From the IMG/VR virus record IMGVR_UViG_3300044732_000704, positions 1 through 64,000 of that record: 64,000 nucleotides of DNA. The stretch is one strand, 5' to 3'. The notes beneath the pieces were generated by a model. That model was not told the origin of the DNA, did no database searches, and saw nothing but the letters and a program-made list of their open reading frames with translations. The stretch comes from a virus. The translations under genes and the position numbers were made by a program. Each line of letters starts with the position of its first letter. The stretch's first letter is position 1. This document shows, piece by piece, positions 29,241 through 33,332 of the stretch.

Positions 29241-29477
29241 TCATTTCTCCTCAATCATCAATTGTTTAGGAAAGCTCATACTACCACGTTCTTTCCATGT
29301 CCACTCATCTTTGATTAGATGGTGGTAAATATAAAACACTTTACCTTTACAGGCCACCTGATACTCTTTGTAAGCACCATCACCATCCACAGCAGATATG
29401 GCAGCAATCTTATACTGCTTGTTCAGTTCTGTCAAGAACTTCTGTAATATTTCTGGCAAGCTGTTGAAATCAATCAT
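29241..29477 (-). CDS. Hypothetical protein
   Basis: In operon; likely start MIDF. Confidence 0.5.
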   Translation of the reverse strand: MIDFNSLPEILQKFLTELNKQYKIAAISAVDGDGAYKEYQVACKGKVFYIYHHLIKDEWTWKERGSMSFPKQLMIEEK

Positions 29478-29679
29478 TCTTGTTCCAAATGTGTTCAGCA
29501 AACAACAATGTACCTAACACGACAATAAACTCAAAACATCCATACCACAGATAATATCCATGCACTTCAGGAATATCTGGATTAGGGAACGTAAAGTTAA
29601 ATCCTGATACAGCCATGATGATAGCAACCATCACGTTCATAATTAGAAAAAACACTGTACTATAAGCTAAATTCTTCAT
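29470..29679 (-). CDS. Two-TM membrane protein
   Basis: GGAGG RBS; hydrophobic segments. Confidence 0.6.
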   Translation of the reverse strand: MKNLAYSTVFFLIMNVMVAIIMAVSGFNFTFPNPDIPEVHGYYLWYGCFEFIVVLGTLLFAEHIWNKND

Positions 29680-29708
29680 TTCAATTCCTCCAATTCTTTC
29701 TCAACATT

Positions 29709-29800
29709 AGCTAACTGTTCTTTCTGTTATGACACCCTTCTCCTCTAATCAAGGAGAATTCCTTCTTCAAGACGGCGGTGCCCCGCCGCAGCAATGTTCT
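29709..29800 (-). ncRNA. Putative TnpB omegaRNA 3' part (right-end hairpin + guide)
   Basis: GGCGG-GGCA-CCGCC hairpin, then GGAA-TTCTCCT-TGATTAG-AGGAGAA-GGGTGTCAT, resembling an IS605-type right end; predicted guide AACAGAAAGAACAGTTAGCT. The 5' boundary is unknown. Confidence 0.6.
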
Positions 29801-30797
29801 TAGACGCATTCACATCCCTATCGTGTTCTGCTCCGCACTCAGAACAAACCCATTGCCGTATTCCAAGACCTGCTCTACCTTTCGGACTACTGTCTGGGAT
29901 AATCCCGCAGCACGAACAAGTCTGGGTGGAGTATGCTTCATTAATAACTTCAAAAATCACACCTGCGTTAGCGCATTTATATTCCAATGTAGATTTAATC
30001 TGTCCCCAAGAAGCGTCTAAAACAGATTTTGCCATTTTAGTTTTAATAAGCTTCCGAGAACTAATGTTACCAACAAAGATTGCAGCACTGGAATCTACCA
30101 AACTGCGTGTAAACTTATGAATAGCGTCCTTACGTCTATTCTTTATCTTTAAGTGAATCGACCTCACTCTGTCTTTCTTATTAGCTCTTTGCGCTAATTT
30201 GAGCTTAGATTCTAACTCACGATACCAACCATTGTCAAGCTTTATTCCTGTTGATGTCACAGCAGCATCTTTACAACCTAAATCTATACCGATTAACTGA
30301 GTTCCCTTAGATTTTACAGCCTCGCATTCAACAGCAATGTTAAGATACCACCGACCTTTAGAATCTTCGTTAAATGAACCTGATTTAAGTTTGTATTGCG
30401 ATATATTATGACAATCCCAAAAGCTAAACAAAACACTATTAAATCTAATTTTACTATCAACCAACTTAATTGTTTGTGGTTGAAAAGGAATCCAACCTAA
30501 CGATCTACCACTTCCTTTGGTTTTCCTCCAACGTAGTCGACGTTTCTTAAATTGCCTACGTCGGGTGACATACTCTTTACTTACTTCTTGTATTGTTTGA
30601 GCAGGAATCCCAAGCTCTTTACTTGAACCTGCTGTGTATTTGTTTATATCAAATTCGGATAAAAACACCCCACGCTCTTTGATTGAGCGTGAGCTAAGTT
30701 CATTGATATAGTTCCAGACAAAATTCACATTAGCTGCAACCTTATTCAAATGTTTAATGTGTTTATCTTTCACCCTGAACTTTAATGTTTTTATCAA
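29745..30797 (-). CDS. tnpB: TnpB RNA-guided endonuclease, solo (no TnpA), rearranged RuvC-II
   Basis: KTLKFR N-terminus; GIDLG (RuvC-I); FVGN plus alternative INEAYSTQTCS; CxxC/CxxC; HDRDVNASKNI (RuvC-III). TTG start with GAGGAG RBS. Confidence 0.93.
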   Translation of the reverse strand: MIKTLKFRVKDKHIKHLNKVAANVNFVWNYINELSSRSIKERGVFLSEFDINKYTAGSSKELGIPAQTIQEVSKEYVTRRRQFKKRRLRWRKTKGSGRSLGWIPFQPQTIKLVDSKIRFNSVLFSFWDCHNISQYKLKSGSFNEDSKGRWYLNIAVECEAVKSKGTQLIGIDLGCKDAAVTSTGIKLDNGWYRELESKLKLAQRANKKDRVRSIHLKIKNRRKDAIHKFTRSLVDSSAAIFVGNISSRKLIKTKMAKSVLDASWGQIKSTLEYKCANAGVIFEVINEAYSTQTCSCCGIIPDSSPKGRAGLGIRQWVCSECGAEHDRDVNASKNIAAAGHRRLEEGILLD

Positions 30798-30801
30798 TTT
30801 G

Positions 30802-31017
30802 TTACTCCTCCACTTGAATAAAATGTTCATCAACAACACTCTTATACATGTAATGACAAGATTGTTGATTGTTTTTAGGTGTATACAGCTCAGGGACGTA
30901 GGCAGATTCTTTTCCTACGTAGAAATCATACACATCTCCAGCCTTAAACGCTGGAATATTCCCACTTTCCTCAGATTCATTGAGCATCCAGAAATCTTCA
31001 ATACATTTAAATTTCAT
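30802..31017 (-). CDS. Hypothetical protein
   Basis: GGAG RBS. Confidence 0.6.
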   Translation of the reverse strand: MKFKCIEDFWMLNESEESGNIPAFKAGDVYDFYVGKESAYVPELYTPKNNQQSCHYMYKSVVDEHFIQVEE

Positions 31018-31408
31018 TGTTTGTCTCCAAATCTTTCTGCTATACGTTCACGGTTTAATCGCAATGCTTCTTGTGTAACAGTATACCCACCTAAGAATTT
31101 ATTGTCAATACCTTCAATTAAATCTTTACGTTCTACTTGCTGAATTTTATATCCACGATTACGCCACTCACCACACAGTAATTCGTATCTATCAGCGAGC
31201 CATTGTAACTTATCAGCGAAATGAGTCATGTGTCCTGTACCAAGCGTATACTCTTGTGGTTGTTTCTTCAGACGTTTGAAGTTGTAGTAATTTACACCAG
31301 TACCTTTCCAATTCTTTACAAGAGTGAATACACGGGGTAATTCACGTATTCGGCAAGTAAATGTTGTCTGGCCAACTCTACTGGTTCTACGGTGTTTATA
31401 CGTGTAAT
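31014..31408 (-). pseudogene. denV: Pyrimidine-dimer glycosylase (T4 endonuclease V), ATT start and 1-nt frameshift
   Basis: (I)TRINTVEPVELARQHLLAEY / RELPRVF...LGTGHMTHFADKL aligns with T4 DenV; frameshift at about 31346-31348. Confidence 0.85.
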
Positions 31409-31418
31409 AAATCTCTCC

Positions 31419-32237
31419 TTATTTAATCCAATTATTTACTATTTCTTCGTAGAAAGGTTGCCAAGTTACCTCATCGAAGAAATCATCTATTTCAGTGAGT
31501 ATAACAAAGTTTTCGTGATGTTTCAATCCAGCATCAATCTTTACATCATTCGGATATACATTTAAAAGTGAGATAGGTTTTATTTCCACTATTGTATGGT
31601 AATTAGGTAAATAAAAATCCGGAAAGTAATGGTGAATTCTCCCATCAGCGGCCATGTAAGGCACTGCAAATTCTTTATTCGCTGCTGATATTACCTCAAT
31701 ATTAAACTTTTTACAAAACAACAAGAATTTTTCCTCATAAGATGACCTGAAGTAGATAGCGTCAACCCTGCCGCTCTTGTGCCAAGATTTTATATCAACT
31801 GCAACGTGAATACTCCTATCTAAATCTGGGTCAGAGTAACGTCTTAGCATAGTCTCTCTTAACCAATCTTTGGTCTTTTGAGTATGTTTATTAGTGCCAT
31901 TTATTTTCCTGTTTTCGGCAATCTTCTTACTATGTTCTGCACTTCTTGGGTCTTTTGGTCTATTTTTAGCAGCTAAAGAAATAGCTTCTTTTACTTCAAG
32001 CAATTGTGCTACATTTTCTACACCATACCTCTCAAGCATAGTGGATCTCAACTTTGCTTGTTTTGCTTTCTGGTCTGTATTCCTTATCCTTTTCTCTATT
32101 GTCTCTTTTGATTGTTTTCTACCAAGACAGGGGTTAGGTTTTGATTTTCTATATAGTGATCTGCACTCATCCGAACAAAACCTAGAGCGTGGTTTAAAAT
32201 GCTCAGTGCCACACCATTCACAGAAATACTTTTTCAT
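31419..32237 (-). CDS. Free-standing homing endonuclease (Zn finger + NUMOD3-like + PD-(D/E)xK)
   Basis: CEWC/FCSDEC; FRSSYE...YFPDF...VEIKP. Confidence 0.8.
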   Translation of the reverse strand: MKKYFCEWCGTEHFKPRSRFCSDECRSLYRKSKPNPCLGRKQSKETIEKRIRNTDQKAKQAKLRSTMLERYGVENVAQLLEVKEAISLAAKNRPKDPRSAEHSKKIAENRKINGTNKHTQKTKDWLRETMLRRYSDPDLDRSIHVAVDIKSWHKSGRVDAIYFRSSYEEKFLLFCKKFNIEVISAANKEFAVPYMAADGRIHHYFPDFYLPNYHTIVEIKPISLLNVYPNDVKIDAGLKHHENFVILTEIDDFFDEVTWQPFYEEIVNNWIK

Positions 32238-32347
32238 TTAAACCCCTTAATTTTAAAAAGGTATTCAACAATCATTTTGACTTGATGCACTTTGTTATGA
32301 TCATAGGCAGCTTCAATTGGACATTTGTTGGTGTAAAACACGTTCAT
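32234..32347 (-). pseudogene. 5' stub of a second pyrimidine-dimer glycosylase family gene
   Basis: MNVFYTNKCPIEAAYDHNKVHQVKMIVEY matches the MNIF...H..KM..E N-terminus of that family; truncated at the endonuclease. Confidence 0.7.
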
Positions 32348-32379
32348 AAGATTCTCCACAATCTGCTTCAATAAGAGCT

Positions 32380-32407
32380 ATTTTACACGAATGAGTGGTG
32401 ATGTCAA
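32380..32407 (-). promoter_or_regulatory. sigma70-type promoter
   Basis: TTGACA-16 bp-TAAAAT. Confidence 0.6.
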
Positions 32408-32427: not shown

Positions 32428-32450
32428 AAAGCCCAGCGAATGCTGGGCTT
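32428..32450 (-). terminator. Intrinsic terminator
   Basis: AAGCCCAGC-ATTC-GCTGGGCTTT; identical copy at about 33310. Confidence 0.8.
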
Positions 32451-33307: not shown

Positions 33308-33332
33308 AAAAAGCCCAGCGAATGCTGGGCTT
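33308..33332 (-). terminator. Intrinsic terminator
   Basis: Same stem as 32428, with U-tract. Confidence 0.8.

Follow-up and report, generated by a model that had tools for sequence, protein, structure and literature searches.

The window analysed here, a stretch of 64,000 nucleotides (positions 1 to 64,000 of the IMG/VR record IMGVR_UViG_3300044732_000704), belongs to a viral genome of 93,434 bp that carries direct terminal repeats and is rated 100% complete. Judged by the primase-helicase, the closest cultured phages are Vibrio and Alteromonas phages (52-56% identity); the DNA of the phage was found repeatedly in lake-water metagenomes, and a megablast search of the GenBank phages with the 3.5-kb tnpB region gave no match. 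Across the complete 93,434-bp genome there was no match to Y1_Tnp, Resolvase or Phage_integrase at E<=1, and the phage, apparently without integrase or recombinase, would be a virulent one of about 93 kb from a lake. The complete genome encodes a single TnpB. Its gene lies in what is probably an early operon, in which an OMEGA module seems to have become fixed. The features of the locus, in the direction of transcription, are the following:

32380 to 32407, minus strand: promoter-like site (TTGACA, 16 nt, TAAAAT; a consensus match only), directly after a terminator hairpin
30802 to 31017, minus strand: upstream 71-aa gene, the putative left homology arm, 90% identical in the related contig L007
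30805 to 30811, minus strand: ribosome-binding site GGAGGAG, inside the end of the 71-aa gene; it serves the 87-aa gene in relatives
30795 to 30801, minus strand: left junction, where homology to relatives stops within the 4-nt spacer and the start codon
30795 to 30797, minus strand: TTG start codon, 4 nt (CAAA) past the TAA (30802-30804) of the 71-aa gene
29745 to 30797, minus strand: tnpB, 350 codons and TAG (reading frame 30797 to 29748, stop 29745-29747)
30282 to 30284, minus strand: RuvC-I Asp172
30069 to 30071, minus strand: Gly243 (in FVGN), in place of the canonical RuvC-II Glu
29937 to 29939, minus strand: alternative Glu287 (in INEAYS)
29814 to 29816, minus strand: RuvC-III Asp328
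29729 to 29858, minus strand: predicted omegaRNA scaffold, overlapping the last ~37 tnpB codons (closing helix, inner hairpins, GCGGCGG hairpin, terminal hairpin)
29738 to 29758, minus strand: terminal right-end hairpin, spanning the tnpB stop; TCTCC/GGAGA here against CCCCG/CGGGG in most relatives, a compensatory change
29729 to 29734, minus strand: right-end terminus TGTCAT (family consensus TGTCAA)
29709 to 29728, minus strand: predicted guide of 20 nt, the flank just past TGTCAT
29676 to 29726, minus strand: orphan C-terminal stub of a 156-aa gene, 16 codons and TGA, reading QKEQLANVEKELEELK*; the TGA overlaps the next ATG (29676-29679, ATGA)
29470 to 29679, minus strand: downstream 69-aa membrane-protein gene, the putative right homology arm, 75-85% conserved and placed after the 156-aa gene in all relatives

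The promoter-like site at 32380-32407 is the likely start of the operon containing tnpB, and L007 has the same terminator and promoter upstream of its 71-aa gene. The terminator is a 22-nt hairpin with the stem AAGCCCAGC (9 pairs, 6 of them G-C) that is repeated at operon boundaries of the window (32429-32450 and 33311-33332) and found at 3900-3921 of L007, directly upstream of the 71-aa gene. A further promoter-like site (11 of 12 matches) lies within tnpB (30209-30238, minus strand), the omegaRNA scaffold beginning about 350 nt further downstream; such sites are no more numerous in the region than in shuffled sequence.

An earlier note on this DNA had described an intact 350-aa TnpB whose TTG start stands 4 nt past the upstream stop and behind a phage-type ribosome-binding site, and had proposed that it was co-opted as an RNA-guided homing endonuclease; the gene is indeed present in this form. 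Its product matches the Pfam families Cas12f1-like_TNB (4e-24) and OrfB_IS605 (5e-8), has TnpB structures as its best solved relatives (PDB matches, 2e-20), and carries a C4 zinc finger (CxxC...CxxC). That the canonical RuvC-II Glu is replaced and an alternative Glu present was confirmed by alignment with ISDra2 TnpB, whose Glu278 falls on Gly243; Glu287 is situated 44 residues further on and is invariant in the clade. Among 10 clade members (52-62% identity) little or no variation was seen at D172, G243, E287, D328 and the zinc-finger cysteines. All TnpBs and Fanzors that lack the canonical Glu have an alternative one about 45 residues away (Jiang et al., PMC10530073), and the TnpB of the window, by the loss of the one and the position of the other, falls among these RuvC-II-rearranged proteins ('TnpB2', TvTnpB, the RIIr clades; PMC10530073, PMC10691335), with which it shares the change of Glu to Gly. 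Clades with this change have been described, and some rearranged branches are enriched in viruses (Altae-Tran et al., PMC10691335). That such proteins can be active, as the earlier note stated, is known by experiment from TvTnpB, a TAM-specific nuclease with no collateral activity (Jiang et al., PMC10530073). With its RuvC Asp-Glu-Asp triad intact and the Glu at the alternative position, the nuclease of the window is apparently active.

The tnpB gene is under purifying selection: against a relative at another phage locus (L029, 81% identity) dN/dS is 0.13, a signal mostly older than the immobilisation described below. In the final 42 codons, which overlap the RNA, dS drops from 1.23 to 0.48. 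The composition of the cassette is fully ameliorated (38.6% G+C against 38.7% for the genome).

The omegaRNA scaffold has strong covariation support. In 29 distinct family sequences, 97.7% of the cells of its 30 pairs are paired and double changes occur in 16 pairs; none of 500 shuffles was as good, and slid controls remained below 51%. The scaffold of the window keeps every helix, several by compensatory changes, and folded as a single sequence it gives the same helices (z = -3.67). In Rfam, no omegaRNA family matched the scaffold, and the only hit was a sub-threshold COG2908 match on the opposite strand. The right-end hairpin ending in TGTCAT, also named in the earlier note, is retained and matches the family terminus: at about 50 family loci conservation runs through the hairpin to ...GATGTCAA (GTCAA) and then stops abruptly. 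Both the window and L029 have GTCAT instead of GTCAA, and if the end of this subclade is GTCATNACA, the element may really end 4 nt later, at 29725.

The predicted guide occurs once in the phage's own genome, where the nearest other site has 2 mismatches. Against 596 Gb of bacterial genomes it gave two exact 20-mer matches in unrelated taxa (Aquibacillus and a Bacteroidales MAG), about the number estimated for chance. An open frame of 16 codons with an ATGA overlap is in itself not significant; the orphan C-terminus that the earlier note had recognised beyond the guide is meaningful because relatives hold the homologous full-length gene.

These relatives are five IMG/VR sequences at the exact locus (L007/L016, which are the same contig, and L017, L018, L019 and L020, one of these four being a 94-kb contig), and all five have the same gene order: 71 aa, 87 aa, none or one variable ORF, 156 aa, ATGA, and 69 or 72 aa. 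After the 71-aa gene (90% identity), L007 has an 87-aa zinc-ribbon-like gene, then one of 70 aa and then the 156-aa gene, whose tail is homologous to the stub and which is coupled by ATGA to the same 69-aa membrane-protein gene. BLAST places the breakpoints at 30797 and 29728 of the window, the latter being the first base past TGTCAT, and between them a cassette of 1,069 bp replaces 869 bp of L007. By comparison with the relatives the cassette is shown to have replaced the 87-aa gene, none or one variable ORF and the 156-aa gene minus its last 16 codons. The suggestion of the earlier note, that TnpB had replaced the 5' part of a phage gene, was thus borne out and extends to the genes upstream. 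The lost 87-aa and 156-aa genes have no copy elsewhere in the 93,434-bp genome. The intact allele that was to be sought in relatives is present in all five, and its 156-aa gene matches the guide over 22 of 22 nt in L018 and L019, 19 nt in L017 and 16 nt in L016, and with three mismatches in L020. Just past guide position 22 the stub has a 12-nt deletion relative to these genes. Contigs of three further lake runs span both junctions with zero differences; the junction is known from one genome lineage, and among the contigs of four lake DNA runs none joins this sequence to the alternative allele. RNA or RNA-like runs contained no more than 7% of the sampled words.

At the left junction the DNA upstream of the start codon is that of the phage's 71-aa gene, 93% identical to L007, and no left end can therefore have survived there. 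This agrees with the statements of the earlier note that there is neither a TnpA nor room for a left end: homology to relatives reaches the start codon, and the complete genome has no left end elsewhere. Comparison of the start-codon region (...TTTGTGATAAAA in L029 against ...AAATTGATAAAA in the window) makes the TTG appear as a junction product of phage sequence and the GTG start of the element. Judged from its sequence, the cassette is no longer able to transpose.

The family to which this TnpB belongs is a large and ordinary IS605 family (6,371 proteins at E<1e-40), present also in bacteria and with many members accompanied by a divergent Y1 tnpA. TnpBs 94-96% identical to that of the window occur on short contigs; further close ones are 79-82% identical (P0001-P0004 and P0028 being the two sets together). 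The 81% identical TnpB of L029 sits at a different locus in a distantly related 95-kb phage, with non-coding DNA upstream, so that the subclade did transpose. A near-consensus promoter-like site (TTGACA, 17 nt, TATAAT) is found just upstream of tnpB in L029 (3850-3880) and in L048, L049 and L058, family members of differing context, and is partly common to otherwise unrelated flanks. We also considered that the natural left end of such elements might lie inside the ORF, as the boundary in the phages Heva and Hyacinthe could suggest; this does not hold in general and was rejected, the left ends of LPSTLL, Dartukuta, L005 and many others being upstream of the ORF. In the Salmonella phages, comparison of the LPSTLL element (L009 2401-2419 and 3596-3604) with the empty VSt472 (L015 1003-1021) revealed a 9-bp direct duplication, AGAATTAAT, which is unexpected for an IS200/IS605 insertion.

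The case is weakest at the TAM. With GTCAT as the right end, the sequence 5' of the guide match in the relatives is TCTKG (TCTGG or TCTTG), unlike the TTATC (6 of 12) or TTACC (3 of 12) that stands 3-8 nt upstream of the left-end cores of the family. Empty-site comparisons gave TTGAC when Heva and Cimandef were set against Eline, and GTGAT when LPSTLL was set against VSt472. A register shifted by 4 nt seems to fit better: GTCAT-N-ACA is common to the window and L029 (two sequences, on which this register rests), and GAACA, its candidate TAM, stands 5 nt before the GCGCCG left-end core of L029, which is the modal spacing. In this register the relatives read GGAACA followed by GAAAG, and the guide would match over 18 nt in L018 and L019, 15 in L017 and 12 in L016, with a mutated TAM in L020. 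A search for relatives of the genes flanking L029, from which the TAM of this 81% relative could be read, found none. In either register, if TnpA made the junction, the sequence next to it must at one time have been a valid target.

The comparison with relatives firmly shows that an immobilised and apparently functional TnpB-omegaRNA module replaced conserved genes, and that its predicted guide addresses the allele which the relatives have kept. We give an about even chance to its being a free-standing RNA-guided nuclease for homing or exclusion in mixed infections. In favour of this we count the position of the breakpoints, the gene order kept by the relatives and the loss of the replaced genes from the genome, the guide matches, the invariant catalytic residues and the activity of a similarly rearranged TnpB, the covariation of the omegaRNA, the purifying selection, the ameliorated composition, the recurrence of the junctions in lake runs, the missing integrase and recombinase, a neighbouring protein endonuclease gene that took the place of the 5' half of denV, and the TnpA-independent spread reported for plasmids. 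Against it we count the TAM of the relatives, the origin of most of the dN/dS signal before immobilisation, the single genome lineage with the junction and the lack of a joint to the alternative allele in the four DNA runs. The cassette would then be a stripped-down OMEGA module of the IS200/IS605 family, of which tnpB, the omegaRNA scaffold overlapping it and the right end are left. The operon transcript would run through tnpB into the stub; TnpB, translated from the inherited ribosome-binding site, would trim its own transcript to an omegaRNA with a guide of 16-20 nt that is the tail of the lost 156-aa gene. The complex could, in mixed infections, cut relatives carrying the 156-aa gene, about 20 bp 3' of the TAM, provided that this TAM is compatible. 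Repair of the break from the TnpB-bearing genome, with the 71-aa gene on one side and the stub and 69-aa gene on the other as homology arms, would copy the cassette and delete two genes, so biasing inheritance; alternatively, the rival genome would be lost. The phage's own copy should be spared, as the right end has replaced the TAM side. The interpretation of the earlier note is on the whole partly supported, and its 'co-opted homing endonuclease' is a good hypothesis, not a finding; the guide match itself follows from any history of IS200/IS605 insertion and is not independent evidence of co-option.

A less probable but serious contender is that the cassette is the stranded remnant, without function, of an ordinary IS605-type element, which was inserted into the 156-aa gene and then lost its left end, together with the upstream genes, by an adjacent deletion; the intactness of TnpB would then be due to nothing more than a recent event or a neutral module. 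The ordinary character and very large size of the family, in which many members have a tnpA, the transposition within the subclade that the L029 element attests, the departure of the TAM from the family consensus, and the decay of the stub by its 12-nt deletion all suit such a remnant. It is harder to reconcile with the deletion endpoint, which lies at most about 3 nt from the start codon and recreates a TTG behind an existing ribosome-binding site, an outcome unlikely without selection for expression. The retention of all four omegaRNA helices through compensatory changes, the full amelioration of the composition and the recurrence of the same junctions in contigs of further lake runs likewise count against a functionless relic.

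If instead the nuclease was domesticated, it might have another target or role, be it in regulation, against hosts or satellites, or in removing recombinants that restore the lost genes. Immobilised and apparently active TnpBs of unknown role are on record (PMC10691335), and among the TnpB relatives carried by phages there are some, the TldR proteins, that regulate host flagellin; we nevertheless regard such a role as improbable, since the catalytic residues are intact and hence not TldR-like, and the only meaningful match of the guide is the 156-aa gene of the relatives, with none elsewhere in the phage and bacterial matches at about chance level. Close to refuted is the notion that the cassette is still mobile, moved in trans by a TnpA of the host or of a co-infecting phage. 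For this speak the intact right end and the family members that have a tnpA; it is opposed by the missing left-end hairpin, the presence in its place of a phage gene 93% identical to that of L007, and the single copy, no second one having been found across the complete genome.

Set beside known systems, the cassette as we read it resembles the IS200/IS605 elements that home by TnpB (ISDra2, Geobacillus IS605; PMC10055086): an RNA-guided RuvC nuclease is combined with an omegaRNA scaffold that covers the right end and the 3' end of tnpB, the flanking sequence supplies the guide, and alleles free of the element are the target. Unlike these, it has neither left end nor TnpA and would thus perform no excision and have no restorative role; it is translationally fused into a phage operon, replaces about 870 bp of conserved genes where they make a simple interruption, and would act in the arena of phage co-infection. 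It is likewise comparable, in the manner of working and not by homology, to the free-standing homing endonucleases of the T-even phages (SegF, SegB, Mob). We find here the same layout of an endonuclease gene between conserved genes, its presence varying among related genomes, with the relatives' target adjoining the insertion point and its own target destroyed, from which co-conversion or exclusion would be expected as in intronless homing and marker exclusion. The difference is that recognition would be by a 16-20-nt RNA guide and a TAM, not by protein, and self would be told from non-self by whether the cassette is there, as happens in intron homing. With TldR it shares an immobilised TnpB relative on a phage genome and a retained guide RNA, but TldR, having lost its catalytic residues, is nuclease-dead and represses host genes, whereas the TnpB of the window has an intact triad and a guide matching a gene of phages.

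TnpB is known to bias the inheritance of its own transposon, and restorative homing has been published (PMC10055086). Spread of IS605 by TnpB independently of TnpA has been reported in plasmid populations, with non-restorative homing reported for plasmids and proposed for co-infecting phages (review, PMC13565253). The concept of TnpA-independent, non-restorative TnpB homing is therefore already published; in the literature searched we found no natural phage case of it. The locus offers a clean test system: an intact, non-transposing nuclease with its guide, defined homology arms, and five relatives whose empty alleles match the guide to graded extents (22, 19 and 16 nt, and one mismatched). 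If the proposed reading is true, gene replacement and competition among phages are driven by RNA-guided nucleases as well as by protein homing endonucleases, and one route is seen from a transposon nuclease to a stand-alone, guide-fixed system.

It is a tentative and rather doubtful extension that the cassette represents a recurrent class, namely phage TnpB cassettes that extend from the tnpB start codon to the right end, spread without transposase by RNA-guided homing or recombination and form the RNA-guided counterpart of the Seg and Mob endonucleases. Hints of such a class come from several other loci. The GC-rich viral contig IMGVR_UViG_3300020390_000010 (L004 3818-5098) has a TnpB in frame with an N-terminal stub of ~55 aa and a C-terminal one of 10 aa, with ATGA overlaps to both neighbours and no left end, and may be another such cassette; a search for relatives showing its empty site gave only matches of <=42%. 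The unrelated Ralstonia phages Heva (L010 2487-3577) and Hyacinthe (L012 1501-2591) share a segment of 1,091 bp, 99.5% identical, that begins 2 nt ahead of the tnpB ATG and ends just beyond the right end, between unrelated flanks. In Cimandef (L014 2172 onward) a different TnpB (406 aa) occupies the Heva site, and the two have in common just the final 36 nt of the element and the flank serving as guide.

Other arrangements were seen at these sites. Hyacinthe and Raharianne have 100% identical flanks with different IS605-type elements between them, while the Ralstonia phage Eline (L013 1149-1341) has no tnpB at the Heva site and carries there two right-end/omegaRNA remnants of ~95-120 nt in opposite orientations.

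In the window itself, the operon of tnpB also contains a broken denV, a gene for UV repair (31014-32371, minus strand). A 71-aa ORF at 31017-31229 corresponds, with 89% identity, to residues 69-138 of the endonuclease V of L020, which is intact there (140 aa), and upstream of it a 272-aa DUF7487/endonuclease-like gene (31419-32237) occupies the place of the N-terminal half of denV. This site, with a protein endonuclease, has the same pattern as tnpB of a 5' half replaced and a 3' stub left, and the whole 1.3-kb block is absent from L007.
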